Below are positions 4,159-34,462 of a DNA stretch of 64,000 bases, piece by piece. The notes beneath the pieces are model-generated. The model did not search any database and was not told the origin of the DNA. It saw nothing but the letters and a program-made list of their open reading frames with translations. The first letter of the stretch is position 1. Each line of letters opens with the position of its first letter. The translations under genes and the position numbers were made by a program. The DNA is from an uncultured Candidatus Saccharibacteria bacterium (lineage in GTDB: Bacteria > Patescibacteriota > UBA1384 > XYA2-FULL-43-10 > 1-14-0-10-43-13): the NCBI GenBank assembly GCA_964529405.1, contig CAZGWE010000003.1:17192-81191 (forward strand). Reading direction: 5' to 3'.

Positions 4159-4203
4159 TTCAACTTTTTCTGACAAGCTCGTAAGCCCTGATCAAAAACA
4201 AAG

Positions 4204-5520: not shown

Positions 5521-5549
5521 AACATTTGGACTTATCGTTCGCTCTCTAC

Positions 5550-6095: not shown

Positions 6096-6162
6096 TTTGT
6101 TCCCAAAGATTTGAAACCAACCATCACAGGTCGGTTCCAGCCCCTCTTTTATTTGGATTTTC

Positions 6163-7056: not shown

Positions 7057-7072
7057 TCTTTGGATCTAAACT

Positions 7073-9698: not shown

Positions 9699-9713
9699 CT
9701 TGGAACGCAGCTT

Positions 9714-10628
9714 ATGGCAACAAAAAAACGCGGAACAAGGAGCGAACACAGAGGTCCGGTTATTGAAAATCATAAAGGGCATGAAATCATAGACTGCAAA
9801 GTGTGCAAATTCAAGCACGTCAATCCGATACCCACCGGCCAGGAGATCAATGATTTTTATGCCAGGTTCTACACCGACGAAAAGCCCAACTACTTCAAAG
9901 ATGCCGAGGAGGATCTGGAGTGGTGGCTGGCGGGATATAGGAACTATTACACTTTATTTGAAAAATATACCAAAGGTAGAAAGCTACTCGATATTGGTTC
10001 GGGGCCAGGCTACTTTCTAAAGTGCGGGGCTGATCGCGGCTGGGAGATTGTGGGCTTTGAACCTTCTAAACACGCTTACGATTATTCAACCAAGATGGGA
10101 CTCAAAGTCATCAATGATTATTTTAACATGGCTAAAGCCAAAGCGCTTGGTAAATTCGATGTTGTTTCATTAACCTTGGTTCTCGAACATCTGCCTAACC
10201 CTAAAAAATTGATCGAAGAAGCCAAGAGCATTTTAAACCCGGGGGGGTTACTTCTCATTCTATCGCCTAACGAATTTAACCCGCTTCAAAGGGCTGTAAT
10301 TAAGAGCAATAATTTAGAACCATGGTGGGTCTGCCCGCCGGAGCACATTAATTATTTTGATTTTCCATCTATCAAGAAATTAGTCAAATCCACCGGCCTT
10401 AAAATAGTAGATTCGCTGGCCACTTACCCCATGGAGCTCTTTCTGCTTAACGGCGAGATCTATATTAGCAACCGTGAGATAGGGCGAGGTTGCCATAAAA
10501 AACGAAAATCTTTTGAGATGAACCTCTACCAGCAAGACCCCGAGATCCTAAACAATCTCTACCGCAGCTTTGCCCGAAATAACATCGGCCGGGAATTTAT
10601 TATTATCGCCAAAAAAAATGAAAAATAA
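9714..10628 (+). CDS. class I SAM-dependent methyltransferase with N-terminal Cys-pair zinc-ribbon
   Basis: LLDIGSGPGYF (motif I), LEHLPNP, PGGLLLI motifs; CKVCKF Cys pair near N-terminus. Confidence 0.65.
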   Translation: MATKKRGTRSEHRGPVIENHKGHEIIDCKVCKFKHVNPIPTGQEINDFYARFYTDEKPNYFKDAEEDLEWWLAGYRNYYTLFEKYTKGRKLLDIGSGPGYFLKCGADRGWEIVGFEPSKHAYDYSTKMGLKVINDYFNMAKAKALGKFDVVSLTLVLEHLPNPKKLIEEAKSILNPGGLLLILSPNEFNPLQRAVIKSNNLEPWWVCPPEHINYFDFPSIKKLVKSTGLKIVDSLATYPMELFLLNGEIYISNREIGRGCHKKRKSFEMNLYQQDPEILNNLYRSFARNNIGREFIIIAKKNEK

Positions 10629-11820
10629 GAAGAACAAAATTCATGTCGCCGTGCAAACCAGCTCTATCAATTGGTCAGGTGGGAAGAATTTAGACGCGAA
10701 AATAATCAATGACCATCCGGTTGTATATTGGACAATTAAAAATATTATCGACCATATTCCAGATTCGTCGATCACTGTGGTTGCTCCAGAATTCGATAAA
10801 GACGGCTCCTTTAACACCCTGCCAACCGAGATCAACCACTCGATCTCCCTCTATTTCGGGTTTGACAATAGCCCGCTAGACAGGCTATTGTCAGCTTTTA
10901 ACCTTTTGGGGGACAATGACTATATCCTCCGTATCGACGGATTGAACTTTGGCTTTAATGGAAAAAAAGCTGTCGAGATGTATAAATACGCGCATGAACA
11001 TGAATTAGACTGCCTAAAATTTCCGGACGACTTCCCGATACACTTCACTTTAGATGTTTACCGGCTGGGAGCGCTAAGGCTTGTCAGGAAACTGCTTACA
11101 AAAAGTGATGACGTCTATAAGATCCATCCAAAGTATTATATGTTTATGCATCCGAATAAATTTAAAGTTGCGCATTATACAAATCTGCCGTCGTATCCAG
11201 ATATAAAATTACAAGAACTGCGACAGCTTTATCAATCGGTCTTTGAAATCCGGGAGGGAGATGTTGGCCGTCGAATCAAGACCGGAGATCAGCTTAACTT
11301 TCATTATGAATTAGCAAGTGAATATGTTGCTAAAAAGATGGATGTATTAGACATTGCCTGCGGAGAAGGTTATGGCACAGAAATATTGTCAAGGAGAGCA
11401 AAGCGCGTTATTGGCGCTGACTTAGATGATCCTGCCGTCAGGAAAGCCGCTAAGATACATCAGAATAAAAATCTGGAGTTCAGAATCGAAAATGCTCTCA
11501 GCACCTCATTTGATGACGAAAGCTTCGATATGATTACCAGTATGGAAACAATCGAACACATAAAAGAAGACATGAAGTACCTGAAAGAGATAAGGCGCAT
11601 CTTAAAGAAAGGCGGCTATTTCATCTTTAGCACTCCCCAAAACCGTCTCGGCCACGTTCCAATGAACAACGAGCACGTCCGCGAATACTCTTTGGAAAAA
11701 CTAAAAAAGATTGTCGGGCAGTATTTTACAATTGAAAAAATTATCGGCATCAAACAAGGACGGATTATTTTTTCCAATGACCCGCTTGGCACAAACACTA
11801 TTTTAGTCTGCCGAAAGTAA
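10618..11820 (+). CDS. bifunctional fusion: cytidylyltransferase-like (CMP-sugar synthetase-like) N-domain + class I SAM methyltransferase C-domain
   Basis: The N-terminus IHVAVQTSSINWSGGKNLDAKIINDHPVVYWTI fits the NeuA/CTP_transf_3 pattern. The C-terminus LDIACGEGYGTEIL ... METIEHI ... KKGGYFIFSTP is a Methyltransf_11-type domain. The start is taken at ATG 10618, 16 codons into the longer track ORF that begins at 10570. Confidence 0.55.
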   Translation: MKNKKNKIHVAVQTSSINWSGGKNLDAKIINDHPVVYWTIKNIIDHIPDSSITVVAPEFDKDGSFNTLPTEINHSISLYFGFDNSPLDRLLSAFNLLGDNDYILRIDGLNFGFNGKKAVEMYKYAHEHELDCLKFPDDFPIHFTLDVYRLGALRLVRKLLTKSDDVYKIHPKYYMFMHPNKFKVAHYTNLPSYPDIKLQELRQLYQSVFEIREGDVGRRIKTGDQLNFHYELASEYVAKKMDVLDIACGEGYGTEILSRRAKRVIGADLDDPAVRKAAKIHQNKNLEFRIENALSTSFDDESFDMITSMETIEHIKEDMKYLKEIRRILKKGGYFIFSTPQNRLGHVPMNNEHVREYSLEKLKKIVGQYFTIEKIIGIKQGRIIFSNDPLGTNTILVCRK

Positions 11821-11825
11821 AGTTA

Positions 11826-12953
11826 TTAATCCTCGAAATGACCGGTCGTTAATGGCTCTCGGGCTTTGATCGGTTTTCTAATCTTTCGACCTCGAAATAG
11901 ATGGAAGTTTTTTGGTTCGATTCCGCCCCAAGGACGCAAAGAGATAATTTTATCCTCTGTCACAATGTCGCCAGGCTTCATATCAGCAGCCGCATAAATA
12001 GAGCGTCTGGACCAACGGTCAAATATCTCATCACCTTTGTGCCCCGGCTTGGAAACCGGTTGTTTGATGCCGCCGCCGGAAAGCGCCGCTTCGGTGTTGC
12101 GAACCTCTTTAACAAAACGTTGAAATTCAGACACTTCCATTGAATTTGGGTCGTCATTACTACCACCCTCTCGCTCGTCGGTAATATGTTTTTCAATAAC
12201 GCATGCACCGAGCGCCACTGCCGCGATTGAAGCAGCGATATATGGGGGTTCGGAATGGTCAGAGTAGCCAACCGGTAATTTAAAAGCCTCTCTCAAAGTT
12301 GTGACGGCACGCAGGTTTAGATCAGAGAATTCCGGCGGATACATTGAAATGCAATGCATCAAAACGATCTGATTATTGCCAGCATCTCGGATAACTTTGA
12401 CAGCATGCGCCACCTCCTCCAAGTCAGCCATACCAGTAGAGAGAATAATCGGACGACCCTTCCCGGCAATATGAGTTAACAGAATATCATCAACGAGTTC
12501 ATAAGAACCAACTTTATAAGCACCGACATTAGCTTCGTCCAAGATATCAACCGCCTCTTTATCAAAGGGAGTCGAGAGGAAGATAATGCCAATCTTTTTG
12601 GCATAAACCGCAAGTTTATCTGTCCACTCGTACGGCATTTCAGCTGATTTAAAGAAACCGGAGAGCGTACCAACATTCTTGCCATTCCAATTATCAAAGA
12701 CTTCTACATCGGCGGCGATCTTATCGTGAGTTATGTGTTGAAATTTGACTACATCCGCACCTGCTTCTTTGGCTTTATCAATCAACTTGTAAGCATTGTT
12801 GATATCACCTCTATGGTTAGCGCCAACTTCCGCAATAATTAAAGTTGGCTGTCCATGACCGATAAGCCGGTCTCCAATTTTGATTGTCTCTAACGGTTCA
12901 AAATTCAGCTGTTTCGGTAAACTTTTATAAAATTTATCTCTTTCTTTGCCCAT
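11826..12953 (-). CDS. N-acetylneuraminate/pseudaminic acid synthase family (NeuB/PseI-like) with C-terminal SAF domain
   Basis: 375 aa; TLIIAEVGANHRGD, GADVVKFQ, ILSTGM, VGYSDHS motifs of NeuB TIM-barrel; C-terminal SAF-like tail. Confidence 0.8.
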   Translation of the reverse strand: MGKERDKFYKSLPKQLNFEPLETIKIGDRLIGHGQPTLIIAEVGANHRGDINNAYKLIDKAKEAGADVVKFQHITHDKIAADVEVFDNWNGKNVGTLSGFFKSAEMPYEWTDKLAVYAKKIGIIFLSTPFDKEAVDILDEANVGAYKVGSYELVDDILLTHIAGKGRPIILSTGMADLEEVAHAVKVIRDAGNNQIVLMHCISMYPPEFSDLNLRAVTTLREAFKLPVGYSDHSEPPYIAASIAAVALGACVIEKHITDEREGGSNDDPNSMEVSEFQRFVKEVRNTEAALSGGGIKQPVSKPGHKGDEIFDRWSRRSIYAAADMKPGDIVTEDKIISLRPWGGIEPKNFHLFRGRKIRKPIKAREPLTTGHFED

Positions 12954-13312
12954 ATTATCGAGCTCCCTTTTATCCGCTTATTCCCAATAATGATACTAAA
13001 TTTACTGATCATGGTCAATCTAATGTCAAATACCAATCGCGTACCGCGTAATGTGAAACTGCTCATACATTAGATAAACGTTTAACATTAATTGATACAA
13101 GCCGCGAGATATAGTTGTGCTGCGGCAATAAAAAAGGTATAGTTATCGCCAAGACTAGTACCGTAAGGAAGAGATCAATGGGTTCCGCCAACAGAAGAGT
13201 CGTAATCGAGTTGCAATGTTTGCAATTGTCCCGTTTTTGACTTAATATTAAGTACGTCCACCAGATTATTTATGGCACAAAGTTCTAACAAGTATCATTA
13301 GGCAATCTTATT

Positions 13313-14551
13313 ATGGGCAACACTAATAATAAAACCATACTTTTACTTGGCGCAGGAGCCGAACAACAGATCGCGATCGAGCTGGCAAAGGAGATGGGAT
13401 ATCGCGTGGTGGCTGCTGACGGCAATCCCAAAGCTCCCGGACTGGCTCTGGCCGATGTCGCCATTGCCGATGACATTAAAAATATTGAAAAGATGATTGA
13501 GGTCGGCAAAAAGCACAAAGTTGATGGGGTAATGACCCATGGGGTCGAAATCCCCCACATCATCTCTCGAATAGCCAAGGCCCTAAACTTACCGGGAATC
13601 GATCCGGAGATTGCCGACCGGACTACGTTTAAATCGGAGCGCATTAAGTATTTAAAAAGGGCCGGCATCAATGTCCCGGAATTTGTGGCTGTTAAGACCG
13701 TAAGCGAGGCTAAAAAGGCTGCTAAAAAGATCGGTTATCCGGTCGTAATCAAGCCGACGGATAACGCCGGTGCCAGGGGCGTAAAAGTTGTCAATAACGC
13801 CGCTGAACTCGAAAAGGCCTTTAACGAATCGCTTGGCTACTCCCATAACCGGGAGATTCTAATTGAACAACTGCTAAGCGGATTAGAGATCAGCACCGAG
13901 TCGTTGGTTTATAACGGCAAAATCTACACCACCGGCTTTGGGGATCGGAACTACTCAAGGAACATTGAATTTTATCCTTATTTTGTTGAGGATGGCCACA
14001 ATGTCCCCTCCGCCCTGCCGGCCGAAACCCAGAGAAAGATTATCTCCGAAGTCGAAAAGACAATCCGGGCCCTTGGTATTACCTGGGGCGTTGCTAAAGG
14101 CGATATCCTGGTAAACAAGAGCGATGACAAGGTTTATGTTCTTGAAATGGCCTCGCGGACCAGCGGAGGCTGGTTCTGCGCCGGCACCGTACCCCTGGCC
14201 ACCGGCGTCCACATTCTGAAACCCCTGATTAAAATGAGTGTTGGCGACCCTGTTGATGAAAACGACCTTAAACCAACCAAAGATCTGGCTGCCTGCCAAA
14301 GATATGTTATTCCAAGCCGTGACGGTACATTTATTAGAATTGAAGGTGTCAAAAAGGCCGGAAAGATGCCTGGAGTGGAGATGCTGGTGATATTCAAGCA
14401 ACCCAAGCGGGGCGAGTTAATCCACAAATCGACCAACCATTCGGAGAGGTTCGGCCAATTAATTGCTGTTGGCAAGGATGTGAAAGACGCCACCAAGAAG
14501 TGCGAAGAAGCCATCAGTTGTATCAGGGTGGTACTGGGTAAGGTTGAATAA
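13313..14551 (+). CDS. ATP-grasp domain enzyme (carboxylate-amine ligase-like)
   Basis: 412 aa; TILLLGAGAEQ pre-ATP-grasp, GYPVVIKPTDNAGARGV and LVLEMASR ATP-grasp motifs. Confidence 0.6.
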   Translation: MGNTNNKTILLLGAGAEQQIAIELAKEMGYRVVAADGNPKAPGLALADVAIADDIKNIEKMIEVGKKHKVDGVMTHGVEIPHIISRIAKALNLPGIDPEIADRTTFKSERIKYLKRAGINVPEFVAVKTVSEAKKAAKKIGYPVVIKPTDNAGARGVKVVNNAAELEKAFNESLGYSHNREILIEQLLSGLEISTESLVYNGKIYTTGFGDRNYSRNIEFYPYFVEDGHNVPSALPAETQRKIISEVEKTIRALGITWGVAKGDILVNKSDDKVYVLEMASRTSGGWFCAGTVPLATGVHILKPLIKMSVGDPVDENDLKPTKDLAACQRYVIPSRDGTFIRIEGVKKAGKMPGVEMLVIFKQPKRGELIHKSTNHSERFGQLIAVGKDVKDATKKCEEAISCIRVVLGKVE

Positions 14552-16645: not shown

Positions 16646-19531
16646 ATGATGCCTTTCAGAGCGGAAAGTATCAAGCTGATATTTCGAGGAGGGGTTTTAG
16701 GATTATGGAGTTACTCTTCGTTTCTTTTTTTTTATGTTATTCTAAATCTTAATTACGTCCTGGCTGCCCTGTCCGGCCTGGTTGTTTATTGGCTCTTTGA
16801 CCTCCTGCTGTCGCAGCACGAACAACATTCTATCCAAAAGATTACATCTAAATTACTTTTAATACCGGCGGGTCTCTTTGTTGTCTGGGGGCTGGTCGGT
16901 CGTCTTAGCTTCTCCCCTGTTTTTGCCAACGCTCTGGTTGTCCTGCTGTTTTTAGCGGGCTATTTTGTCGGACCTGTTTATTACGAAGCCAGAAAAAAGG
17001 AAATCGACTTTCTGTTCTATCGTTACCGCTTTGTCTTAAACTACTGTCTGATTGGTTTTGGCTCAATTGTTTTAGAGTTAATAATCGCTACCACCCTAAA
17101 CCGATTTCTTAATCTCAACGTGATGCTTGGCAGCGTCATCGGCTTTATCTTTGGCGTTCTCTTCAGCTACATCCTTAATTCAAGGTTGAACTTTCAGGTA
17201 CCTAAGAAAAAGAGCGTCAAAACCTTTAAAATGTTTGCTCTCATCTCTCTTTTCAGTTATTCGCTTAGCATAATCCTGCTGCAATTGATCAGCAGCGTTA
17301 TGGACTTTGAATATTTCTATCTTCGCTTTTTAATTGCCGGTGTCCTCTTTGCCATCGGCTATACTTTACATCGCCGCTACACTTTTACCGACATTAAGTA
17401 TGTTGGCGTTGCCCTTTACCTCGACCCAAAAGAGAGCACCGACGATGTCTGGAACAAGATCCAGGATTACCCCGACTTCATCCACATCGACTTGGTTGAC
17501 CAGACCTATAACCCCAAATTCACGCCGGAGAACATTGATGTCAGCAAAGGTTACGACATCAAGTCTAAGTGGTTCGGCATCAAAACCATGACGCACGTTA
17601 TGTCCAAGTTCCCCTCCAAGTGGATCTCTGAAATTGCCGGCTTCTCCGACGTTATTATTGTCCACTATGAAATCGAAGAGAGTCTGAATGAGGTTATTGA
17701 AAGCATCAAAAAACTGAATAAGAAGGTTGGATTATCGATTCTCTACTCGACCGATATTGAATTAATCCGGCCATATCTCAAAGAAATGGACGTGGTTCAG
17801 GTCTTAGGTATTGCCCAACCGGGCATGTCCGGCCAGTTCTTGCAAAAAACCGCTCTGGAGCGATTGGTTAAACTCAATGCGATCAAGAAAGATTACAGTT
17901 TCGAGATTTGTTTTGACGGCGGTATCAAGCGCGAAAATATTGACAGCATCACCGCTAAATACGTCGTCTCGGCTTCCTCAATTTTGAACGCCAACGATCC
18001 GGTCAACGCCATCTTTGACTTAAAAACCAGCTCCCGCTACTTCTCGCAACGGGCATCGCTTAAAGATTTCCTCTCCAAGCGGATTTTAAACATAGGCGAG
18101 AACGAGCCTTCCATTGCCTCGATCAACATTGTCGGCTCATTTTCCGAAAAAGATGACCTCTCCGGCATCAGCGATATCGATATCGTTATCATTGCTGACG
18201 AACTCAACAAGGAAAAGTACGCCGATATCGTCAACCAGTTTAACCTGCTCAAGGAACAGATCGAGACCGACTACAGCTTGAGAGCCAAGATTAATGACAC
18301 CTTTGGCCCGCTCAAGTTTGACGACCGGTACGACGTCGTTCTGCACCTCATGATTTATGACACCAGGGGCCATCTTGACCACTGTGTCAAAAGCCCTTTC
18401 ACCGTCCTCGACTGGGAGAGAAGCCGGATGTATGCCAAGAAACCGATGAAAGAGATTATTGCCACCTTAAAACCCCAGCCCAACCAGCTGATGAGCTCGC
18501 GAAGAAGTCTTGACAGCTACTTGCGGGATCTGCGGCAGGGCAACATTACCTACCGCCAATATTCATTTAACGGATCAGAAAAAACACTGCAAGAGATTGC
18601 CAAGACCAAGAGAATGGCCGGCAAAGACAAGGTTGAATACGCCTTTCATATTATGAAGTTTATGATTTTGAATTTTATGAAGATCTACTCCGGCCAAAAT
18701 ATGCGCTTCTCCGAGGAGGTGATACAAAGTTTCTTCGGTCTGACCGATATGAACCGTAAATATCTGTCGCTTTTTAATGAATTGCACCGCAGAAAGTTGA
18801 ACAAAAGGACGGAGATCAGCGAGGAGGAGATCTGGCAATTACAGCTCTTCCTGCTGGAGTTTAAGATGGTTTTCGAAAAGGTCTTCCATCTGATGGGCAA
18901 AAGCGTCATTCTGATGCGCCACGCCCAAACCGAGTTAAACAAGAAAAAGGTCTTTCTGGGCCAACGGCATGATCCGGATATTATCACCGAGCCGATTAAG
19001 GACAAGATTGCCTCACTGTCCTCGTCTTTATCCGATATCGATATTGTTTACTCCTCTCCAATGCGGCGGGCACTGGAAACGGCCCGGCTGGTTAACAAAC
19101 CGCTCAAGCGCGAGATGGTGGTCAACTACGACATCAATGAGATAGACTATGGCGATATCGACGGCCAAGAGTTTGCTTATCTATTTAAAAATTATCCCGA
19201 TATTGTTAAAGCTTGGGAGAGGGGCGAGGATCCCAAGTTCCCCAACGGCGAAAATTACGCCGACCTTCTGGAGCGCCTGGACCGGTTCTGGCAATCGCTT
19301 CAAGAAAGAAATGACCGATGGTGCGGCAAGATCCTGGTTGTAACCCACAACGTCATCATGAGGGCAGTCGCCGGCCGGTCGCTGGGCATACCGCAGAAAT
19401 ATTGGCATAAAATCAACATTGACCATTTAGAAACCTTCGAACTTTTTATGGCCGGGAACGGTATTATACATTTGAATCTTGAGGGTGACCAGATCGCTAA
19501 AATATATTATAATATTTATACCAATGATTGA
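16646..19531 (+). CDS. four-part fusion: GtrA-like membrane N-domain + ribulose-phosphate-3-epimerase-like TIM barrel + Pol-beta-type nucleotidyltransferase + histidine phosphatase (PGM-family)
   Basis: N-terminal polytopic region; the RPE-like segment has IHIDLVDQTYNPKFT, QPGMSGQF and CFDGGIK; the NTase segment has GSFSEKDDLSGISDIDIVII; the histidine-phosphatase segment has ILMRHAQTELN (RHG motif) plus a conserved C-terminal His region. The exact start is uncertain. Confidence 0.5.
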   Translation: MMPFRAESIKLIFRGGVLGLWSYSSFLFFYVILNLNYVLAALSGLVVYWLFDLLLSQHEQHSIQKITSKLLLIPAGLFVVWGLVGRLSFSPVFANALVVLLFLAGYFVGPVYYEARKKEIDFLFYRYRFVLNYCLIGFGSIVLELIIATTLNRFLNLNVMLGSVIGFIFGVLFSYILNSRLNFQVPKKKSVKTFKMFALISLFSYSLSIILLQLISSVMDFEYFYLRFLIAGVLFAIGYTLHRRYTFTDIKYVGVALYLDPKESTDDVWNKIQDYPDFIHIDLVDQTYNPKFTPENIDVSKGYDIKSKWFGIKTMTHVMSKFPSKWISEIAGFSDVIIVHYEIEESLNEVIESIKKLNKKVGLSILYSTDIELIRPYLKEMDVVQVLGIAQPGMSGQFLQKTALERLVKLNAIKKDYSFEICFDGGIKRENIDSITAKYVVSASSILNANDPVNAIFDLKTSSRYFSQRASLKDFLSKRILNIGENEPSIASINIVGSFSEKDDLSGISDIDIVIIADELNKEKYADIVNQFNLLKEQIETDYSLRAKINDTFGPLKFDDRYDVVLHLMIYDTRGHLDHCVKSPFTVLDWERSRMYAKKPMKEIIATLKPQPNQLMSSRRSLDSYLRDLRQGNITYRQYSFNGSEKTLQEIAKTKRMAGKDKVEYAFHIMKFMILNFMKIYSGQNMRFSEEVIQSFFGLTDMNRKYLSLFNELHRRKLNKRTEISEEEIWQLQLFLLEFKMVFEKVFHLMGKSVILMRHAQTELNKKKVFLGQRHDPDIITEPIKDKIASLSSSLSDIDIVYSSPMRRALETARLVNKPLKREMVVNYDINEIDYGDIDGQEFAYLFKNYPDIVKAWERGEDPKFPNGENYADLLERLDRFWQSLQERNDRWCGKILVVTHNVIMRAVAGRSLGIPQKYWHKINIDHLETFELFMAGNGIIHLNLEGDQIAKIYYNIYTND

Positions 19532-20135
19532 GTATTTTATCGCCCTGACTCCCGAGCAACAGCTCTACAAAAAGATTGAATCGGTTAAGTCTTATGTTTT
19601 CGAGAACTTTGGCGACCAAGCTTATTTGCTTGACCCGCCCCACTCCACCCTCTGTGTCGGCACGACCGGTAATATCAAAGAAACTAACCGAGAGCTAGAA
19701 AAATTCACCGAGACAAACAAAAGGGTCGGTTTTGGAATAATCGATTGGCTCATCTTCGCCAATGACAAAGTGACAAAATCGTCATCACTGGTTTTGAGGT
19801 TTGATGAAAATTGCATCAAATCCCTTAGGCAGGTTCAAGCCGGAGTTCTGGATGCCGTCGCACCGTCGAGAAGCAAGGCGTGCGCAAAGAGGTATAAGAG
19901 CGTTAAATTTTCGCCAGTCGAGAAGCAAAATTTAATAAGCTTCGGCTTTCCCTATGCCGGCGAGATCTGGATCCCTCACATCGGCATCTGCGCTATGTCC
20001 GATGAACACATCGCCGATGTCAAGACAAAATTTGATATCAAAGACTTTAGCCAGCCAAGCTGTTTCGACCGGATTTCTTTATATAAACTTGAGAGCGAAA
20101 AACCAATATTAATTAATTCGTTTGATCTACTATGA
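19524..20135 (+). CDS. hypothetical protein, weak 2H-phosphoesterase-like features
   Basis: PHSTL and PHIGI resemble degenerate HxT/S motifs. The longer track ORF overlaps the upstream gene, so the start is taken at the internal MIEYF. Confidence 0.25.
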   Translation: MIEYFIALTPEQQLYKKIESVKSYVFENFGDQAYLLDPPHSTLCVGTTGNIKETNRELEKFTETNKRVGFGIIDWLIFANDKVTKSSSLVLRFDENCIKSLRQVQAGVLDAVAPSRSKACAKRYKSVKFSPVEKQNLISFGFPYAGEIWIPHIGICAMSDEHIADVKTKFDIKDFSQPSCFDRISLYKLESEKPILINSFDLL

Positions 20136-20836
20136 AACATCAATTGTTAAAAAAAATGGTCTGGCAAGCTAATCGGGCGCTATCTGGTTCCGGTTTGATT
20201 ATTTTAACCTGGGGCAATGCCAGCGCTTACGATCGTGAAGCGGGCGTAATTGCTATCAAACCAAGCGGTGTTTCTTACGCCGAGATGAAAGTTGACGATA
20301 TCGTCGTACTTGATATCGAGGGTAAAATTATTGATGGTAATAAAAAACCGAGCGTCGATACGCCAACGCATTTAGAAATTTACCGCAGCTTTCCAGCTAT
20401 TAACGGTATCGTCCACACCCACTCACTCCACGCCACCGCCTTCGCCCAGGCCGGCACACCGATTGAATGCCTCGGCACAACACACGCCGACCACTTTTAC
20501 GGCCGTATTCCGGTGGCCAGAAAGTTATTGAAAAGAGAAATGGACGCCTATGAAAAAAACACCGGCAAGGTCATCGTTGAATTATTCCGCCAAGAGCAAC
20601 TCGATCCGCTTCATGTTCCGGGCTGTCTGGTGGCCGGCCACGGCGTCTTTACCTGGGGCAAGAGTGCTGATGACGCAGTCAATAATGGGATTGTTGCCGA
20701 GTTTCTGGCTAAGGCGAATCTGGCAACTTGCACTATTAACAACAAGACAGTGAAACTGCCTAAGCACATTCTGGAAACCCATTTTTTAAGAAAACATGGT
20801 AAAAATAGCTATTATGGACAAGGAGAAAAGAAATGA
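20132..20836 (+). CDS. class II aldolase/adducin-family protein, L-ribulose-5-phosphate 4-epimerase (AraD)-like
   Basis: 234 aa; IKPSGV, VHTHS, GHGVFTWG motifs of AraD/FucA family; 4-nt overlaps on both sides (operon). Confidence 0.7.
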   Translation: MKHQLLKKMVWQANRALSGSGLIILTWGNASAYDREAGVIAIKPSGVSYAEMKVDDIVVLDIEGKIIDGNKKPSVDTPTHLEIYRSFPAINGIVHTHSLHATAFAQAGTPIECLGTTHADHFYGRIPVARKLLKREMDAYEKNTGKVIVELFRQEQLDPLHVPGCLVAGHGVFTWGKSADDAVNNGIVAEFLAKANLATCTINNKTVKLPKHILETHFLRKHGKNSYYGQGEKK

Positions 20837-21594
20837 TTAATTTGATTCCAATGGCCGGACTTGGCAACCGCTTTGCCGCCGCCGGCTATACCACCCCAAA
20901 AGCCTTAATTCCGATTTCCGGCAAACCGATGATTTTACGCGTAACTGAAATGATGCCCAAAGCCGATAAGTGGGTCTTTGTTTTGCGAAAGGAGCATGTC
21001 GACAAGTACCAAGTTGACGAGGCGATCAAGAAAGAGGTGCCCAACAGTGAATTTATTATTATCGATTACAACACCGAGGGCCAGCTTTCAACCTGCTTGT
21101 TAGCCGAAAAGTATATCAACAACGATGAGGAGCTGTTTATCGGCGCCTGCGACCACGGCTTTCTCTGGTCGGAGAAAAAGTTTAATTCGCTGCGCAAAAA
21201 ATATGACGTGGTACCCTGGGTTTTTACCAAACAGAAAACCCTCTCCGATAACCCGACCGCCTGGGGCTGGGTCAAAACCGATAAAGCGGACAACGTCTTA
21301 GGTGTCTCGGTCAAAACGCCTATCAGCGATACTCCCTTTGACGATTACGCTATCACCGCCGCTTTTTATTATCGCACCGGCAAGATTTTCCTTGATATCG
21401 CCAATAAAGTTATAGCCGATGATACCAGAATTAAAGGTGAATTTTATGCTGACACAACTATTGATTACGCCCCAAAGATGAATTACAAGACCAAAGCCTT
21501 TGTGGTTGATAAATATTTGAGTTGGGGCACCCCACGAGACTACGAAGAGTTCCTCTTCTGGCAAGAAGTATTTGGAAAAGTAAAGTTCATGTAA
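20833..21594 (+). CDS. sugar-phosphate nucleotidyltransferase (MobA/LicC-like NTP_transferase)
   Basis: The N-terminus LIPMAGLGNRFAAAGYTTPKALIPISGKPMI is a G-rich nucleotide-binding loop typical of sugar nucleotidyltransferases. Confidence 0.6.
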   Translation: MINLIPMAGLGNRFAAAGYTTPKALIPISGKPMILRVTEMMPKADKWVFVLRKEHVDKYQVDEAIKKEVPNSEFIIIDYNTEGQLSTCLLAEKYINNDEELFIGACDHGFLWSEKKFNSLRKKYDVVPWVFTKQKTLSDNPTAWGWVKTDKADNVLGVSVKTPISDTPFDDYAITAAFYYRTGKIFLDIANKVIADDTRIKGEFYADTTIDYAPKMNYKTKAFVVDKYLSWGTPRDYEEFLFWQEVFGKVKFM

Positions 21595-21648
21595 TCTTAT
21601 CTATCCCTCCCCTAGATTAGGGGAGGCTAGGTGAGGTAGAAGAGCCCT

Positions 21649-22059
21649 ATGAAACAGCTTTTTGTTAAGTATCGCCACTTTATCGTCTTCTCCCTGATCG
21701 GGGCATTTTGCGTTGTGATTGATTTTGTCTTTTACCTTCTCTTCCTAAAAATTTTTGACATCGTTGTTCTCTCTAAAATCTGCTCCTCAATCATCAGCGT
21801 CAGCGTAAACTACCTTTTAAACTCCCGCTTCAACTTTGACAATAAGCAAAAAGTCAGCACCAAATTCTATACTCAGTATTTAATTGTTTATGCTTTCCTG
21901 ATCGGCCTCAATGCCCTCTTTAATTCGGTTTTTCTTCAAACTACCGGCAGCATTAACCTCTCCTTCTGGCTAGCCGCCATAATCGCCGCTTTCACCAATT
22001 ACGCCGCCATCAAGATCTTCTTCAAGGTCATCAATAGATCATATCGCTTGCCAATCTGA
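21649..22059 (+). CDS. GtrA-family membrane protein
   Basis: 136 aa, 4 hydrophobic helices, YLLNSRFNF motif. Confidence 0.6.
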   Translation: MKQLFVKYRHFIVFSLIGAFCVVIDFVFYLLFLKIFDIVVLSKICSSIISVSVNYLLNSRFNFDNKQKVSTKFYTQYLIVYAFLIGLNALFNSVFLQTTGSINLSFWLAAIIAAFTNYAAIKIFFKVINRSYRLPI

Positions 22060-22243
22060 ATATATTTAGTCATTTGAGCAAAGTTCTAACCCGTTCGACA
22101 GACTCGGGACAACCTCCGCAAAGAATCCCTCGGCAAACTCAGGATAAGTTCTGTAGAGGGATTTTTTAGTAACCCAACAAAAAAGACGGCAACCCTAGCG
22201 GTCACCGCCCAACACACCCTCCCACTCTGGCTACTGAGGAACC

Positions 22244-23263
22244 TCAGTAGCTGATCGACAACAGGTCGCCGATCTCTGCGCGGAAGCGCAAAGCCGCGCC
22301 GACGAGCTTGCTCTCAATCTCACGGCTAGCCGTAAACACGGTGCCAGCTCGATGCCACATCTCTTTGGGCGAAACCGCGGCCGCGTTAGCCGTGAGCTGC
22401 TCGCCGAAGATATCAACCTCGAGTCGCACATTGCCGCCGGTCTGATCGAGCGCCCGGGCAATGGCTTGTGTGGGAGCAGTGTCCCACACCTTCCAGTCCG
22501 GTTGGCAGTTGAACGAGATATTCATCGGCTCAAGCGCCGTGAATGCCTCTAGCTTACCAACCGGCTCCACGAGAGAACGGAAGACTTGCAGCGCCTGCAA
22601 GCCCGCTCCACCTGTCGGTACCTGTACAGCGTCGATACCAAGCTCATACAGGAGTTCGGTGAAACGCTCATCGAAAAGGGACTGCGGGTAGTAGATCCGT
22701 CGGTTATACCGGATCTGTCCTTTCTGGCGGTCCCTGATCGGCCGCACACCCATGATGCGGACGCTACCTTCCTCTTCGGTGGCAAAGCACACCTGCCGCC
22801 CCTCGCTGATGAGAGCGAACTGGCCCAGCACGTGATATATCATACCCGCCACCGGAAGGAACGGCTCGTTAGGCGATTCCCGGCAAAGCTTGGTGATGAG
22901 AACGGTCGGCGATATGACCTGATCCGTTCTCACCGACTTCGCCAGGTCGCCACTCCCGTCGAGCGGATCGACCATGTAGATCTCCGTCGCCATCCGGCGA
23001 TCGGGCGAGTCCTGCTCCTCGGTGAAAGAGCCGGGGTAGCGCCCCGCGAGGCCTTCCACACCCGGAATGCCGCCATAGAGGAGGGCATGACTTGCGCTTA
23101 CGTCCACCTCTGTAACGACTTCGCCGAAGTTGGCTCCGGCAGTAACGAGCTTGATGCCCGTCTTCTTGCGCATCGCGGGCAGGATCACCGCCGCTACGAC
23201 GCGCGCGACCTGGGGGAACACCCATCTCTGCATCTCGTCAGTGTGAGATATACCTGCTAGCAT
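22244..23263 (-). CDS. inositol-monophosphatase/FBPase/CysQ-family (FIG superfamily) phosphatase
   Basis: MVDPLDGSGD (DPxDG metal site) and WDTAPTQAIA (WDxA) motifs; gene lies in a ~65% GC segment. Confidence 0.65.
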   Translation of the reverse strand: MLAGISHTDEMQRWVFPQVARVVAAVILPAMRKKTGIKLVTAGANFGEVVTEVDVSASHALLYGGIPGVEGLAGRYPGSFTEEQDSPDRRMATEIYMVDPLDGSGDLAKSVRTDQVISPTVLITKLCRESPNEPFLPVAGMIYHVLGQFALISEGRQVCFATEEEGSVRIMGVRPIRDRQKGQIRYNRRIYYPQSLFDERFTELLYELGIDAVQVPTGGAGLQALQVFRSLVEPVGKLEAFTALEPMNISFNCQPDWKVWDTAPTQAIARALDQTGGNVRLEVDIFGEQLTANAAAVSPKEMWHRAGTVFTASREIESKLVGAALRFRAEIGDLLSISY

Positions 23264-23420
23264 CTACTTTCCCTTCCACCGGCACGTTTGCCAGTCCTGC
23301 GTATTATACATTTATAGAATAATATGTCAACATCCCTTTCTTGATATACACAGTTAATTATGGTATGGTGGTGAGCTTAGCTAGACTATCAGACAGATAA
23401 GCTAAGCAGAGGGGGACAAC

Positions 23421-23921
23421 ATGCCGAAAACAATACAAATCCAGGACGTCACCGAGGAGAAGTTGAGATCCGGCAAACTGAGAAGACTGCTGCCGGAGAT
23501 CTACGATCTCAAGCGCGTAGTCGAGAACAACGTCTGGCATAAGAACCAGACGGTCTTCGACCACACCGTCGGAGTCTTCCAGGGCATGAGGGAGGTCTTG
23601 GACTTTCGCCTCAACGAAACTTTAAAGGCGCGGCTAGCCAGTACCCAGGTCGGCACGTTGTCTCGGTCTGAAGCCCTGCTTGCCGCCGCCCTGCTCCACG
23701 ACATTGCCAAACCGGTGACCTGGAAACGCGATGTCACCGGCATCACTTCGTGTCCCTGGCACGAGGAAATCGGTAGTACCATGGTACCCGCTTTCGCCGA
23801 TCGGCTCTGTCTCGATCTGATGGATGTGCAACACATCCAAAGCCTAATCAAGGGCCATGGCTTCGCCTATGGTACCTTCACCCTTATCTCCGACTTGCTT
23901 GACCTTTTAAAGGATTTTTGA
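23421..23921 (+). CDS. HD-domain phosphohydrolase
   Basis: H..H ... LLHDIAKP motif; ~55% GC. Confidence 0.55.
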   Translation: MPKTIQIQDVTEEKLRSGKLRRLLPEIYDLKRVVENNVWHKNQTVFDHTVGVFQGMREVLDFRLNETLKARLASTQVGTLSRSEALLAAALLHDIAKPVTWKRDVTGITSCPWHEEIGSTMVPAFADRLCLDLMDVQHIQSLIKGHGFAYGTFTLISDLLDLLKDF

Positions 23922-23933
23922 GAGAGTACCACT

Positions 23934-24920
23934 ATGATGTGGTTTAGCTTCATCGCACTCCTACTAATTGCTTCGTTTGCCTACTCTGCCATAGGCAAGA
24001 TTTTGGTCATTAAAAAAATCTTTACCTCAATAATGGTTGGCTTGAGCTTTTCGGGCTTGCTGGTCGGCACGCTGGCCAATTTTAACGCCGGCATCATCAG
24101 GCCGGTGGCTGTTACCGTCATTACTATCGGGCTAATTCTGGCTATAAGAAACATCAGAAAATCAGACAGCGCCAAAATTGATCCCTCTCTCTACGCTTTT
24201 CTGGCTGCGGTCGGCCTGACATTATTTATTCTCAATTATCCAACAAGAGTTTTTTTAGATAACAACACTTTGCTTTACAATATTCATTACTCCTACTTCT
24301 CCAATCTCTCCTCGGAAATGTTGACCGCTAACTATTTTAGCCGGTTAAGAGTGTCTGAGTTCGTACCTTACGAGTGGAGCATCTACCACTTTTTCAACTC
24401 CGGTGTGCAGGCATCAATCTCCGGCCTCATTCCCCGCCCCGGCCTCTTTTCTTATTTTTTCGCCCAGCTCTTCGTCGTTATTTTTATAATTTTAGCCCTG
24501 TTAGAAAACCTCTTCGATCTATTTGGTTTTAACGCAAGAACAGCGGCCGCCTCGGTCATCTGGTTAGCTTTTGGCTTTACCTTTTTTTCGAACGCCTTCG
24601 CCTGGAACCTGGCCACTACCGGCCCCCTCTCAGTCTTTGCGATGATCTTGCTCCTTATCTCGATTTACAAAAACAATACAAAAGAGTTCATTCTGTTTTC
24701 CTTAATACTGGGTGCCAGCGCCTTCCGCCTGCTGCCGCTAGCCATTGTTGCGTTTATCCTACTCTTTCTCTCCACTCTCCTGCCTGATTACAAGAAACCA
24801 AAAACAATATCGGCCACCTTTAAAAAACTTTTGCCCGATTACCCGACGCTGCTCTTCTATCTGCTCTTTCTAGCCTACAATGTCTCAACCATTATTTTTG
24901 GCTCTCTGCCGGCAAGGTAA
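23934..24920 (+). CDS. polytopic membrane protein, unknown function
   Basis: 328 aa, ~9 hydrophobic helices. Confidence 0.35.
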   Translation: MMWFSFIALLLIASFAYSAIGKILVIKKIFTSIMVGLSFSGLLVGTLANFNAGIIRPVAVTVITIGLILAIRNIRKSDSAKIDPSLYAFLAAVGLTLFILNYPTRVFLDNNTLLYNIHYSYFSNLSSEMLTANYFSRLRVSEFVPYEWSIYHFFNSGVQASISGLIPRPGLFSYFFAQLFVVIFIILALLENLFDLFGFNARTAAASVIWLAFGFTFFSNAFAWNLATTGPLSVFAMILLLISIYKNNTKEFILFSLILGASAFRLLPLAIVAFILLFLSTLLPDYKKPKTISATFKKLLPDYPTLLFYLLFLAYNVSTIIFGSLPAR

Positions 24921-24943
24921 GCTACCAAAAGGAACAAGACGCT

Positions 24944-25846
24944 ATGATCGACTTCCAATACAGCTTTCAAGATGATTGGTCATCGGGATTGGCCTTTTAC
25001 CGGACCATTGGTATCTTTATTCAGCGCTTTCTCCATCGGGGCGTCTTTTTGGAGGCCAACTTTAACAACTCAATGCATAAACCGATTGAAAATATACTCT
25101 CTAGCTGGTTTTTATTTATCTCGGCCATCTTTGCCTTCATCTTTCTTATCGATTGCCTGATCTGCTACTATAATAAAGCCGGACTAAAAAAAACCATCAA
25201 CATGGCTTCCCTCTTTCTGGTTGGCTTGTTAGGCTCTGCCGGCCTGGCCCGGATATTTCCCAAGATCGCAGTAGCCAAGCTGGTCCTGGTCACCGCACCC
25301 TATCTGCTCTTGAGCCTCGGCCTGCTTTATTTGGTCCAAAATCAGATAGCACCGAAATTTTTTTCCAATAAAGATGGCGCCGCCCGCCCATTGGTTAATC
25401 CCTTTATCTTCCTGATTCTGATGGTTTTGACAGGTTTTGCCATGCAGTTTCTAAGGTTGGGTCCGGCCGTTAAAATACCGGCGCTTTTTATACCCTACGA
25501 CATTCTGCTTTGGGGCATACTCGGTCTTTTTCTCTTTGTTCACTCGCACATTAAGATCAAACTTTTATACCAAACCCTCTTTGTTGTCATGCTGGTCTTT
25601 GTTTATGAAGTTCCTCTAAATTCGCTTTTAACGATCAAATCGCCGGCCCCGATTGATATTTCCCCGCTCCTAGCGTCTAACCTTAATCGTTCCGACTACC
25701 TTGACAGCCGGAGCGGCCTGTGCAAATTTGATTACGACGATCAGACTAAAACCGTTGTTTATGCGGCCGTTCTGGGTTGCGACCTCAAATACTCGGCGGC
25801 CAGGAAAGAATCTTTAAGCATTAACTTTTTGGCAAAAGACAAGTGA
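24944..25846 (+). CDS. polytopic membrane protein, unknown function
   Basis: 300 aa; hydrophobic helices; begins 23 nt after previous membrane ORF. Confidence 0.35.
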   Translation: MIDFQYSFQDDWSSGLAFYRTIGIFIQRFLHRGVFLEANFNNSMHKPIENILSSWFLFISAIFAFIFLIDCLICYYNKAGLKKTINMASLFLVGLLGSAGLARIFPKIAVAKLVLVTAPYLLLSLGLLYLVQNQIAPKFFSNKDGAARPLVNPFIFLILMVLTGFAMQFLRLGPAVKIPALFIPYDILLWGILGLFLFVHSHIKIKLLYQTLFVVMLVFVYEVPLNSLLTIKSPAPIDISPLLASNLNRSDYLDSRSGLCKFDYDDQTKTVVYAAVLGCDLKYSAARKESLSINFLAKDK

Positions 25847-26580
25847 ATATGAAAAAATACTCCATCATCGTTCCCTGTTACAATGAAGCCAAAAACATTC
25901 CCCTGATTTTAAAACGTTTCCAAACAGCTATCGGCAAACGCTCGGATACCGAACTTATTCTGGTCAACAATGGTTCTGTTGACGATTCAGACAAGGTCAT
26001 CTCTGCCAACCTGCCGCGCTTCACCTTTGCCAAATCGATCAAGGTGACCAAAAATATCGGCTACGGCCACGGTGTCCTGACCGGGCTCAAAGAGGCCAAT
26101 GGGCAGTTCCTTGGCTGGACCCATGCCGATATGCAAACCGACCCGGTTGATGTTTTGAAAGCGTTTGCAATTTTAGAGGGAGCCGACAAACCAGATAATA
26201 TTTTTATTAAAGGCAGAAGGGTCGGACGTCCGGTATTTGACCGCTTGTTTAGCCTTGGAATGGGTGTATACGCTTCATTAAAACTTAGAGTCAGATTTTA
26301 TGAGATCAACGCCCAACCGACCATCTTCTCAAAAAGATTTTTTAACTCCTGGCGCAACCCGCCCTCCGACTTTTCTCTCGACCTCTTTGCCTATTGGCAA
26401 GCCCAAAAAAACAATTTGCGAATTATCCGCTTTCCCGTCCTCTTTCCGGAAAGAAAGTTTGGCCAGTCGTCCTGGAACACCTCCTGGAAAAAACGAATAG
26501 CAATGATAAAAAGGTCAGCGGATTTTATCAAAAAGTTAAAAGAAAGGACAAAAAGTGAACTACATCGCCCACCGCGTTAA
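25843..26580 (+). CDS. GT2-family glycosyltransferase (polyprenyl-phosphate sugar synthase, DPM1/ArnC-like)
   Basis: YSIIVPCYNEAKNI, LVNNGSVDDS, GYGHGVLTG motifs. Confidence 0.7.
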   Translation: MNMKKYSIIVPCYNEAKNIPLILKRFQTAIGKRSDTELILVNNGSVDDSDKVISANLPRFTFAKSIKVTKNIGYGHGVLTGLKEANGQFLGWTHADMQTDPVDVLKAFAILEGADKPDNIFIKGRRVGRPVFDRLFSLGMGVYASLKLRVRFYEINAQPTIFSKRFFNSWRNPPSDFSLDLFAYWQAQKNNLRIIRFPVLFPERKFGQSSWNTSWKKRIAMIKRSADFIKKLKERTKSELHRPPR

Positions 26581-27148
26581 CACGATTGAAGAGTTAAAGA
26601 AAGTGCCCGGAGAGTATGGAGTCGAGATTGACCTGCGCGACCGCGACGACGGTAAAATCATTATGGTCCATGACCCCTTCACTCCGGGAGAGGATTTCGA
26701 GGAGTATCTTAAGCACTATCACCACGGTACCATGATTTTGAACATCAAGAGCGAGCGGATCGAGCACAAGGTTTTAGAACTTATCAAGAAAGCCGATGTT
26801 AAAGACTATTTCTTTTTGGACTCTTCATTTCCAATGATCTACCTCCTCTCCAACCAGGGTGAAAAAAATTTAGCCGTACGTTTTTCAGAATACGAAGGCT
26901 TGGATACTATATTAGCAGTCAAAGATCGAGTTAAGTGGATTTGGGTTGATTGCTTTACCAAACTACCCCTTGATGATAAAACGGTCAAAGCGCTCAAGGG
27001 AACCGGTCTGAAACTCTGCCTGGTCTCTCCGGAACTCCAGGGACGACCGGAAGATATCGAACCATACAAAAAGCAACTGAAAGACCTTGGCATCGCCTTT
27101 GACGCCATTTGCACTAAGATCTATAACATCGAAAAGTGGCAAGCCTGA
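26555..27148 (+). CDS. glycerophosphodiester phosphodiesterase-like (GDPD family) protein
   Basis: IAHRVN ... VEIDLRDRDDGKIIMVHD matches GDPD N-terminal signature. Confidence 0.5.
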   Translation: MNYIAHRVNTIEELKKVPGEYGVEIDLRDRDDGKIIMVHDPFTPGEDFEEYLKHYHHGTMILNIKSERIEHKVLELIKKADVKDYFFLDSSFPMIYLLSNQGEKNLAVRFSEYEGLDTILAVKDRVKWIWVDCFTKLPLDDKTVKALKGTGLKLCLVSPELQGRPEDIEPYKKQLKDLGIAFDAICTKIYNIEKWQA

Positions 27149-32260: not shown

Positions 32261-32279
32261 AGTCGTTAGGCGTTAAGGG

Positions 32280-33310: not shown

Positions 33311-33493
33311 ATAATCGTAAAGATCAACTGCCCTTAGGTAAGGATTAACATATACTATTGCAAAACCTCAATCGAACTAGTGTTAGCATTATTATAACCA
33401 GCAAAGTTTAATTTTGCAAAGAGCCGGTCGTTTAGCGTGTAACTCGTAATAATTAATACCTCTAACACACGCTTAAAATCAGGCGCTAAATAT

Positions 33494-34435: not shown

Positions 34436-34462
34436 AAAATTCCTCTTCGTCTTATGTTTAAG

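Follow-up and report, generated by a model that had tools for sequence, protein, structure and literature searches.

A four-domain fusion protein from an uncultured Candidatus Saccharibacteria bacterium belongs to a widely distributed, uncharacterised gene module with a possible role in lipid-linked pentose glycosylation

Organization of the Fusion Protein

A stretch of 64,000 nucleotides (hereafter the window) from contig CAZGWE010000003.1 (positions 17,192 to 81,191; assembly GCA_964529405.1) of an uncultured Candidatus Saccharibacteria bacterium was found to contain an open reading frame (ORF) with an ATG start (16646-19531, plus strand) that encodes a 961-aa fusion protein. This protein consists of an N-terminal transmembrane region, a GtrA domain, an RPE-like domain, a nucleotidyltransferase (NTase) domain resembling aminoglycoside nucleotidyltransferases (ANT) and a histidine phosphatase (HisPhos) domain. 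A four-domain fusion had been described in an original prediction for this DNA; the ORF and the peptides quoted from it were found to be present, and all four named domains were detected with Pfam. The fusion was shown to belong to a conserved module together with downstream genes for a 2H phosphoesterase, AraD, a sugar-phosphate nucleotidyltransferase, a family 2 glycosyltransferase (GT2) and a GDPD-like protein.

The hydrophobic region formed by the first 115 residues (16646-16990, plus strand) had no Pfam match in the window protein, and aligned with the first GtrA-like domain of longer homologues (alignment columns 1-140); a GtrA-GtrA architecture was found with domain hidden Markov models in two related loci (L001 and L006). 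The following GtrA_DPMS_TM domain (PF04138, residues 133-247; 17042-17386, plus strand) was detected with an E-value of 6e-15, and the RPE-like TIM barrel (Ribul_P_3_epim, PF00834, residues 263-446; 17432-17983, plus strand) with an E-value of 1.7e-21 and 77 bits compared to a Pfam gathering score of 21.1. Residues H280, D282, H317 and D424 of the barrel aligned with H35, D37, H70 and D175, the metal-binding and catalytic residues of human RPE (3ovp), and were invariant across 21 homologues, so that the segment was shown to keep the catalytic His/Asp/His/Asp set. Because its score against the rpe equivalog TIGR01163 (80.3 bits) lies far under the cut-off of 212.6 and does not reach the level of an orthologue, this domain is a divergent paralogue, and its substrate may differ, e.g., L-ribulose 5-phosphate (L-Ru5P).

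The C-terminal domain was identified as a histidine phosphatase of branch 1 (His_Phos_1, PF00300, residues 754-931; 18905-19438, plus strand; E-value 6.4e-34, 117.8 bits), with the RHxxT catalytic motif present as RHAQT at residues 753-757. Its closest solved relatives were the phosphoserine phosphatase PspA, CobC and fructose-2,6-bisphosphatase, and it reached no NCBIfam equivalog cut-off. A reading as a cobamide enzyme (CobC) was set aside, as the score was under the cut-off and the context is one of glycan synthesis.

The NTase Domain

Between the RPE-like and phosphatase domains lies a Pol-beta nucleotidyltransferase domain with an additional helical domain (residues 479-750; 18080-18895, plus strand), together assigned to an ANT-like two-domain fold. 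The core (residues 479-551) matched NTP_transf_2/Polbeta (PF01909) with an E-value of 7.7e-5 and 23.4 bits (cut-off 21), and the same match was obtained for 18 of 19 family members. In the G-S...D-x-D motif and the third carboxylate of this family, the G, S, both D and YD residues were invariant, and H..H, SPFT, DW and RR were found as invariant residues specific to the family. The stretch of approximately 200 residues that separates the NTase core from the phosphatase has no Pfam assignment, and a profile of residues 462-752 gave only insignificant Pol X matches among PDB sequences.

A HMMER library search with this domain retrieved 400 representatives only among 1.84 billion, 167 of them with E-values below 1e-30, in agreement with the earlier statement that the fusion is unusual. 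The lengths of these representatives (approximately 475, 680, and 840-990 aa) fit NTase-HisPhos, NTase-HisPhos-2H and full-fusion architectures, respectively, and because of this match the domain seems to be confined to the module.

By fold comparison, the domain resembles O-adenylyltransferases that act on sugar or cyclitol hydroxyls. Compared with ANT(9), ANT(3'')(9) and ANT(4'), identity was 9-12% with no sequence-level match, and the module NTase was found not to be a member of the ANT families at sequence level. It also differs from ANT enzymes in being located within a glycan-synthesis fusion, in having its own invariant residues and in having no resistance-gene context.

Genes Downstream of the Fusion

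The AraD gene had been predicted to follow the fusion directly with a 4-nt overlap. Instead, a gene for a 203-aa 2H phosphoesterase (19524-20135, plus strand, ATG start) was found to intervene, overlapping the fusion gene by 8 nt. Overlaps of 4 nt are present between this gene and araD (20132-20135) and, as stated earlier, between araD and the gene for the nucleoside triphosphate (NTP) transferase (20833-20836). The window 2H protein alone had no Pfam match, whereas PF13563 (2_5_RNA_ligase2) was detected in its homologues from related loci. A profile of the family matched YjcG (2d4g, 6.5e-5), LigT PH0099 (1vdx, 1.4e-4) and a plant cyclic phosphodiesterase (1fsi, 0.019), and both HxT motifs were kept (H40-x-T42 and P151-H152-x-T).

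The AraD protein (L-ribulose-5-phosphate 4-epimerase; 20132-20836, plus strand) scored 318.2 bits with NF006047 (cut-off 257) and aligned over its full length (residues 6-230) with E. coli AraD 1jdi (E-value 1.7e-71). The alignment contained the HTH, HAD, HG and C-terminal YYGQ motifs, which comprise the Zn ligands and acid/base residues, and AraD is canonical. Together with the catalytic residues kept in the RPE-like domain, this agrees with the use of pentose-phosphate precursors that had been proposed for the locus.

The next gene (20833-21594, plus strand) encodes a 253-aa sugar-phosphate nucleotidyltransferase of RmlA/GlmU fold with weak matches to PF12804 and PF00483, and is followed by a gene for a stand-alone GtrA protein of 136 aa (21649-22059, plus strand; PF04138, 3.6e-12). 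Both genes and araD were found where they had been placed. The LicC/MobA-type label given to the 253-aa enzyme is weak, since its best solved relatives were sugar-1-phosphate enzymes: an uncharacterised NDP-sugar pyrophosphorylase from Vibrio (4evw, 1.2e-16), followed by GlmU and HddC. Matches to inositol-1-phosphate cytidylyltransferase (3e-6) and IspD (5e-5) were weaker.

The region originally delimited (16646-22059) was found to be too narrow. Besides the 2H phosphoesterase, two further conserved enzymes, a GT2 and a GDPD-like protein, had been overlooked, and these are encoded further downstream together with candidate GT-C partners. The GT2 (25843-26580, plus strand; PF00535) is a 245-aa protein of the polyprenyl-phosphate glycosyltransferase type, most closely related among solved structures to ArnC (1.6e-10) and to dolichol-phosphate mannose synthase (DPMS, 1.3e-8). 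It has no transmembrane helices, as in PpgS-type enzymes that are partnered with a GtrA-like protein.

The GDPD-like protein (197 aa; 26555-27148, plus strand) had no match in Pfam (E-values up to 10), NCBIfam or the PDB profile search, and was assigned by fold. Its AlphaFold (AF2) model is a TIM barrel (predicted local distance difference test score 93.9), and among the best Foldseek matches were the GDPDs 7e2a and 2o55 (template modelling scores of 0.69-0.72; E-values 3e-6 and 1e-5). Both alignments showed H6, E24, D26, R28 and H39 to be invariant, and that of closer homologues showed the same for R7; the invariant HR...E.D...H residues correspond to the predicted GDPD/PI-PLC catalytic pattern. 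The protein is approximately 50 residues shorter than typical GDPDs and belongs to a family of more than 5,000 clusters, a few close homologues being labelled 'PI-PLC/GDPD family' by NCBI.

Several polytopic membrane proteins are encoded next to these genes. Two adjacent plus-strand ORFs of 328 and 300 aa (23934-25846) without Pfam match are candidates for a split GT-C. The two (23934-24920 and 24944-25846) are separated by 23 nt and differ in reading frame, and the first is similar to the N-terminal part of a single membrane protein of 581 aa encoded after the GDPD-like gene in a related locus (L034); the pair may represent either a frameshifted or a genuinely split GT-C. By a crude hydropathy count, a 577-aa protein with approximately 10 transmembrane helices (27163-28896, minus strand) and a 720-aa protein with approximately 12 (29070-31232, minus strand) are two further GT-C candidates.

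Distribution and Conservation of the Module

A genome scan with the single fusion protein gave no match, and loci were retrieved by a scan with an alignment of the fusion. The fusion or its split parts were found to recur in 22 protein clusters and at 42 species-level genome loci. All ORFs were clustered for a set of 45 loci made up of these species-level loci and metagenome loci. The fusion or its parts were present in all 45, followed in frequency by the small GT2 (39 loci), the NTP transferase (35), the 2H phosphoesterase (34), AraD (33) and the GDPD-like protein (32). Less frequent were stand-alone GtrA genes (13 loci) and a TylF-type O-methyltransferase (6 loci), and a polytopic protein (at least 7 transmembrane helices and at least 400 aa by crude hydropathy) was located within three genes of the module in 31 of the 45, some of these neighbours in related loci having PMT_2 or YfhO signatures. 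Decoration of a surface glycan by a lipid-linked route, which had been suggested from the GtrA domains, agrees with the finding that the neighbours conserved across loci include GtrA, a GT2 resembling ArnC/DPMS and polytopic GT-C candidates.

The module was found in archaea, including the DPANN group, and in at least seven bacterial phyla, including Patescibacteria, Bacteroidota and Planctomycetota. The GtrA and RPE-like domains were fused in all loci except one (L016), in which the GtrA model gave no match. GtrA-RPE-NTase-HisPhos in one chain was observed in archaea (Woese-, Pace-, Nano- and Micrarchaeota, Methanosarcinales, and Thermoplasmatota) and also in a metagenome-assembled genome (MAG) of Patescibacteria and in the window, which is bacterial by its dnaA-dnaN-recF genes and a T4SS_pilin-domain protein. 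A split into GtrA-RPE and NTase-HisPhos was observed in Bacteroidota, Planctomycetota, Gracilibacteria, Marinimicrobia and Actinomarina, and in MAGs and single-amplified genomes of alpha- and gammaproteobacteria. Besides, NTase-HisPhos-2H was found in four Bacteroidota loci, 2H-NTase-HisPhos in one Pirellulales locus, HisPhos-2H in one locus (L018), and GtrA-RPE-NTase with a separate HisPhos also occurs. Such Rosetta-stone fusions tie the RPE-like, NTase, HisPhos and 2H proteins together as one predicted functional unit.

The rarity of the architecture could by itself speak for an artefact of assembly or annotation, or for a chance juxtaposition of unrelated genes. However, the architecture of 830-990 aa was present in independent assemblies from NCBI, JGI, ENA and Logan, with 21 full-length homologues of 37-57% identity. 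Catalytic residues were intact in the alignments of every domain, those that are invariant also arguing against an artefact, and synteny was kept in the 45 loci. The artefact and chance explanations are thus refuted. Literature searches for the gene combination found no published description, and the module is real, widely distributed and uncharacterised.

A Sister Module and Loci with Three Genes Only

A related gene set, the sister module, was found in cultured Proteobacteria, namely on the E. coli IncR plasmid p5-S1-CAM-01-A (NZ_CP145712.1; 6022-14984, L051), on Azospirillum brasilense p5, and in an Aliarcobacter cryaerophilus island beside integrases, and also on one metagenome contig. It contains genes for a double NTP transferase, GtrA, a GT2, a GDPD-like protein, a PRK-family kinase anchored in the membrane, a HAD hydrolase, a class II aldolase-family protein of 350 aa that is not related to AraD and a hypothetical protein of approximately 590 aa; all are annotated by generic family names only. 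The GDPD-like proteins showed 70% (Aliarcobacter) and 46-47% (E. coli and Azospirillum plasmids) identity to the window copy, and the GT2 of the window was 49% identical to that of the E. coli plasmid module. The window NTP transferase was more similar to the C-terminal domain of the double NTP transferase (38%, 2e-50) than to its N-terminal domain (only 24%). In Leptospiraceae-type loci, GtrA, GT2 and the GDPD-like protein were found only.

In the sister module, the kinase, the HAD hydrolase, the second NTP domain and the aldolase-family protein replace RPE, the ANT-like NTase, HisPhos, 2H and AraD. From this comparison of gene sets, an NTP transferase of the C-terminal type (C-type), GtrA, GT2 and the GDPD-like protein are predicted to be an invariant core, and the enzymes that handle the precursor are predicted to be interchangeable: kinase, N-terminal NTP domain (NTP-N) and HAD in one variant, and ANT-like NTase, 2H and HisPhos in the other. 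Since the window NTP transferase matches the C-terminal domain of the sister enzyme, the comparison fits an equivalence of kinase plus NTP-N with the Pol-beta NTase, i.e., two nucleotidylation-type steps in either variant.

The GDPD-like protein of the window shares approximately 70% identity with its counterparts in the sister module or in loci with three genes only (Aliarcobacter and Leptospiraceae), 55-60% with those in fusion-type loci of Planctomycetota and only 30-45% with most copies from fusion-type loci. As it is closest to the sister and three-gene copies, the GT2/GDPD-like pair may differ in origin from the block of fusion, AraD and NTP transferase.

The plasmid module was detected in 2 of 5,426 complete E. 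coli genomes, next to IS26. More than 100 metagenome cluster representatives with 88-97% identity to the plasmid GDPD-like protein were found, and the sister module therefore seems to be abundant in an uncultured or unsampled population and to be captured only rarely on E. coli plasmids. The GDPD-like gene was not found in phages, and the Aliarcobacter DNA had no match in E. coli genomes.

Comparison with Known Glycosylation Systems

The gene content suggests, with about an even chance, that the fusion is the core of an undescribed donor-synthesis branch of Gtr-type three-component glycosylation fed by ketopentose 5-phosphates. By homology, the RPE-like enzyme and AraD would interconvert D-ribulose 5-phosphate (D-Ru5P), D-xylulose 5-phosphate (D-Xu5P) and L-Ru5P, possibly on to L-xylulose 5-phosphate (L-Xu5P). 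The RmlA-fold enzyme would make an NDP-sugar, GT2 and GtrA would load the sugar on polyprenyl phosphate and flip the product, and a polytopic GT-C would add the sugar to a surface glycan outside the membrane. With the Gtr-type three-component systems of extracytoplasmic glycosylation (GtrA/GtrB/GtrC, and also ArnC/ArnT, PpgS/Rv3632/Rv3779 and CsbB/GtcA/YfhO), the module shares GtrA, a GT2 near ArnC/DPMS and polytopic, GT-C-like neighbours. It differs from them in that its GT2 has no transmembrane helices and is paired with a GDPD-like enzyme, and in having a dedicated donor set (RPE-like, AraD, ANT-like NTase, HisPhos, 2H, and NTP transferase) in place of a common UDP-sugar.

The pathways of CDP-ribitol and CDP-arabinitol (TarI/TarJ, Acs1, and AbpA/AbpB), with which the locus had earlier been compared, also start from ribulose or xylulose 5-phosphate and use a nucleotidyltransferase of GT-A fold. 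They lead to TagF- or LicD-type phosphotransferases, whereas the module contains a polyprenyl-phosphate GT2, GtrA and GT-C. No reductase cluster was conserved with the module among the clustered ORFs of the 45 loci, and the analogy fails for this reason. The only cluster of short-chain dehydrogenases/reductases (SDRs) had its members dispersed among 15 loci and consists of common NDP-sugar dehydratase/epimerase-type enzymes, and the gene for the aldo-keto reductase (6163-7056) is part of the nonulosonate locus located upstream.

A related explanation is that the 253-aa enzyme is a TarI/AbpA-like cytidylyltransferase acting on a pentulose or pentitol 5-phosphate, its CDP product serving a phosphodiester-type decoration, with the Pol-beta domain as a LicD/FKRP-like phosphotransferase. 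Ketopentose 5-phosphates are the obvious substrate pool, the profile of the enzyme does include the cytidylyltransferase and IspD matches and the weak PF12804 match given above, and LicD and FKRP have NTase-like folds. No LicD, FKRP or sugar-1-phosphate enzyme was among the PDB matches of the NTase profile, and we consider this explanation unlikely.

Systems for pentofuranoses that depend on phosphoribosyl pyrophosphate (PRPP) (Kelly et al., 2024; PMC11127046) and the mycobacterial decaprenyl-phospho-arabinose pathway resemble the module in placing a pentose on polyprenyl phosphate. These systems and the module also have in common a pentose from central metabolism, a dedicated phosphatase, epimerases and a final transfer by a GT-C. 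In them, PRPP is used by a UbiA-type phosphoribosyltransferase, and a HAD/PAP2 phosphatase and SDR/DprE epimerases acting on the lipid are involved; the module is different in having epimerases of sugar phosphates (RPE and AraD) and a Leloir-type GT2 with an NTP transferase. No UbiA-type synthase or HAD/PAP2 phosphoribose phosphatase was found among the window ORFs scanned (1524-32260) and the module clusters. Kelly et al. (2024; PMC11127046) do not mention GT2, ribulose or a nucleotidyltransferase.

It could be that the module follows such a mycobacterial or Citrobacter-like route, in which a 5-phosphorylated pentofuranose is transferred onto polyprenyl phosphate and then dephosphorylated by the membrane-tethered histidine phosphatase, and in which the RPE-like domain might epimerise a lipid-linked intermediate. 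Known systems do proceed from PRPP to undecaprenyl-phosphoryl ribofuranose 5-phosphate (undP-Ribf-5-P), followed by a phosphatase and epimerases (PMC11127046, PMC11194591), the fusion is membrane-anchored through GtrA, and the sister module includes a membrane-anchored kinase and a phosphatase. However, neither a UbiA-type phosphoribosyltransferase nor a ketose-aldose isomerase was present among the module ORFs scanned, a furanose is impossible for a ketopentose 5-phosphate, and the NTase, 2H and GDPD-like enzymes would be left unexplained. This route appears improbable.

Proposed Activation Chemistry

In the ketopentose-fed branch proposed above, the sugar would be a ketopentofuranose (L-ribulo- or xylulofuranose). 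As the furanose ring of a ketopentose closes through O5, the 5-phosphate would have to be removed, presumably by the histidine phosphatase. A special activation route is proposed because the anomeric C2-hydroxyl is tertiary and is served by no ordinary kinase or mutase; to our knowledge, no kinase or mutase acting on the anomeric C2-hydroxyl of a ketopentose has been described.

Four steps can be envisaged. The ANT-like NTase would O-nucleotidylate the neighbouring primary C1-hydroxyl, the GDPD/PI-PLC-like enzyme would turn the resulting diester into a 1,2-cyclic phosphate by a PI-PLC-type cyclisation, the 2H phosphoesterase would open the cyclic phosphate to an anomeric 2-phosphate, and the RmlA-like enzyme would form an NDP-ketofuranose. 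Cyclic phosphodiesterase converts ADP-ribose 1'',2''-cyclic phosphate to the 1''-phosphate, which is a precedent for the third step. In the sister module, the first step would consist of C1 phosphorylation by the kinase and NDP formation by the extra NTP domain; PRK is known to phosphorylate Ru5P. This specific sequence, in which the tertiary anomeric hydroxyl is activated through nucleotidylation, a 1,2-cyclic phosphate and an anomeric phosphate to an NDP-ketopentofuranose, is a proposal only and is possible, though doubtful.

A divergent RPE paralogue combined with AraD would permit conversion of D-Xu5P to L-Ru5P and further to L-Xu5P. L-Xylulofuranose forms a side branch in Yersinia O:10 (PMC11380512), and ketopentofuranose side branches exist for which no donor pathway is known (PMC7685785, PMC11380512, PMC9614988); activated donors for xylulofuranose (Xulf) are still listed as unidentified in reviews (PMC7685785). 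A link between the module and xylulose-bearing organisms could not be made: the last protein search gave metagenome matches only, and the literature on Campylobacter jejuni RM1221 gave no information on this point.

Several points weigh against the ketopentose-fed branch and its chemistry. Which sugar is made, and in which order the steps would proceed, is purely inferred, and the glycan structure is not known for any of the organisms with a module member. The chief weakness is that GT2 and the GDPD-like protein form the tightest pair, occurring with GtrA alone in the Leptospiraceae-type loci. Because of this pairing, the GDPD-like enzyme may act with or after GT2, on or after the lipid-linked product, and not upstream of the NTP transferase; the histidine phosphatase could likewise be a mutase or act after lipid transfer. 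In addition, AraD is not found next to the module in 12 of the 45 loci (a contig end truncates several of them), a 2H gene is absent from the sister module, the likeness of the NTase to ANT enzymes is at fold level only, with all Foldseek E-values above 0.001, and the GT-C candidates of the window itself have no family match.

That the GDPD-like protein travels with GT2 and GtrA even where precursor genes are not nearby would also agree with a housekeeping or proof-reading function, in which the GDPD-like, 2H and HisPhos enzymes would clear sugar cyclic phosphates formed spontaneously from a labile NDP-sugar, or free polyprenyl phosphate from dead ends. A 2H enzyme followed by a phosphatase is the classic order in end healing. 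Enzymes that release undecaprenyl phosphate (Und-P) from stalled Und-P-sugars are known (PMC11898649). On the other hand, strict conservation and fusion to the NTase and RPE-like domains in many lineages are more typical of consecutive steps of a pathway, and a housekeeping function is quite unlikely in our opinion.

Ketopentofuranoses (D- and L-xylulose) are known to form side branches that are antigenic, in O antigens and capsules as well as in viral N-glycans. If true, the specific chemistry would be the missing route to the xylulo- and ribulofuranose branches of Yersinia, E. coli O95/O97, Campylobacter and chlorovirus glycans, and this route would be common to DPANN archaea, CPR (candidate phyla radiation) bacteria and many free-living bacteria. 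New roles in sugar-nucleotide metabolism would follow for ANT-like nucleotidyltransferases, for 2H phosphoesterases and for a GDPD-like family without a Pfam model. The module and its proteobacterial sister provide clonable candidate donor genes, one set being located on an E. coli plasmid. Furthermore, the fully fused form common to DPANN and Patescibacteria bears on the surface chemistry of ultra-small episymbionts and on gene exchange.

Accessory Genes and Surrounding Regions of the Window

Four extra genes are located between the NTP transferase/GtrA genes and GT2 in the window, the split GT-C candidate described above accounting for two of them. The first (22244-23263, minus strand) encodes an accessory 339-aa protein with motifs like those of inositol monophosphatase (IMPase; DPLDGSG and WDTAP). 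Homologues with 41% identity are present inside the module of three archaeal loci (L006, L011, and L014); the protein had no Pfam, NCBIfam or PDB sequence match, and the IMPase-like assignment could not be confirmed. The GC content was 55% at 22001-24000 compared to 44-45% in the flanking bins. A promoter-like site (23330-23303, minus strand; TTGACA-16-TATAAT) agreed with the sigma-70 consensus at 12 of 12 positions, and a terminator-like site with an 11-bp stem was found at 22210-22184 (minus strand). The gene looks like a separately acquired and inserted accessory phosphatase cassette. The other gene (23421-23921, plus strand) encodes an HD-domain protein of 166 aa, with GlnD and CCA-adding enzymes having the most similar HD domains, and was part of the module in this window only.

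Upstream of the module, a locus for biosynthesis of a nonulosonic acid of the pseudaminic or legionaminic type was found (1524-14551). It contains genes for a PseB-like dehydratase, a DegT aminotransferase, a Wzx-like flippase, the aldo-keto reductase, a DUF218 protein, methyltransferases and an ATP-grasp ligase, with NeuB encoded on the minus strand (11826-12953). An unusual 694-aa protein (7073-9157) is a fusion of a CMP-sugar cytidylyltransferase and a class III aminotransferase.

Downstream of the module, further glycan genes are located on the minus strand (31238-35609), including a GT2 gene (31238-32260) and RmlD-like and RmlB-like genes. A second small GT2 encoded in this region (32618-33310, minus strand) resembles the polyprenyl-phospho-GalNAc synthase PpgS with 197 bits, which is under the cut-off for that family. 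Because of this PpgS-like GT2 and the surrounding glycan genes, there seem to be at least two separate polyprenyl-phosphate-sugar systems in the region.

Further downstream, a 1044-aa protein with a C-terminal T4SS_pilin domain (PF18895) is encoded at 49101-52235 (plus strand), near a gene for a T2SSE/PilB-type ATPase (53036-54700, minus strand). The genes dnaA, dnaN and recF follow at 56910-61143 (plus strand) and coincide with the minimum of the cumulative GC skew at approximately 56-58 kb, a position that would fit an origin of replication in a bacterial genome.

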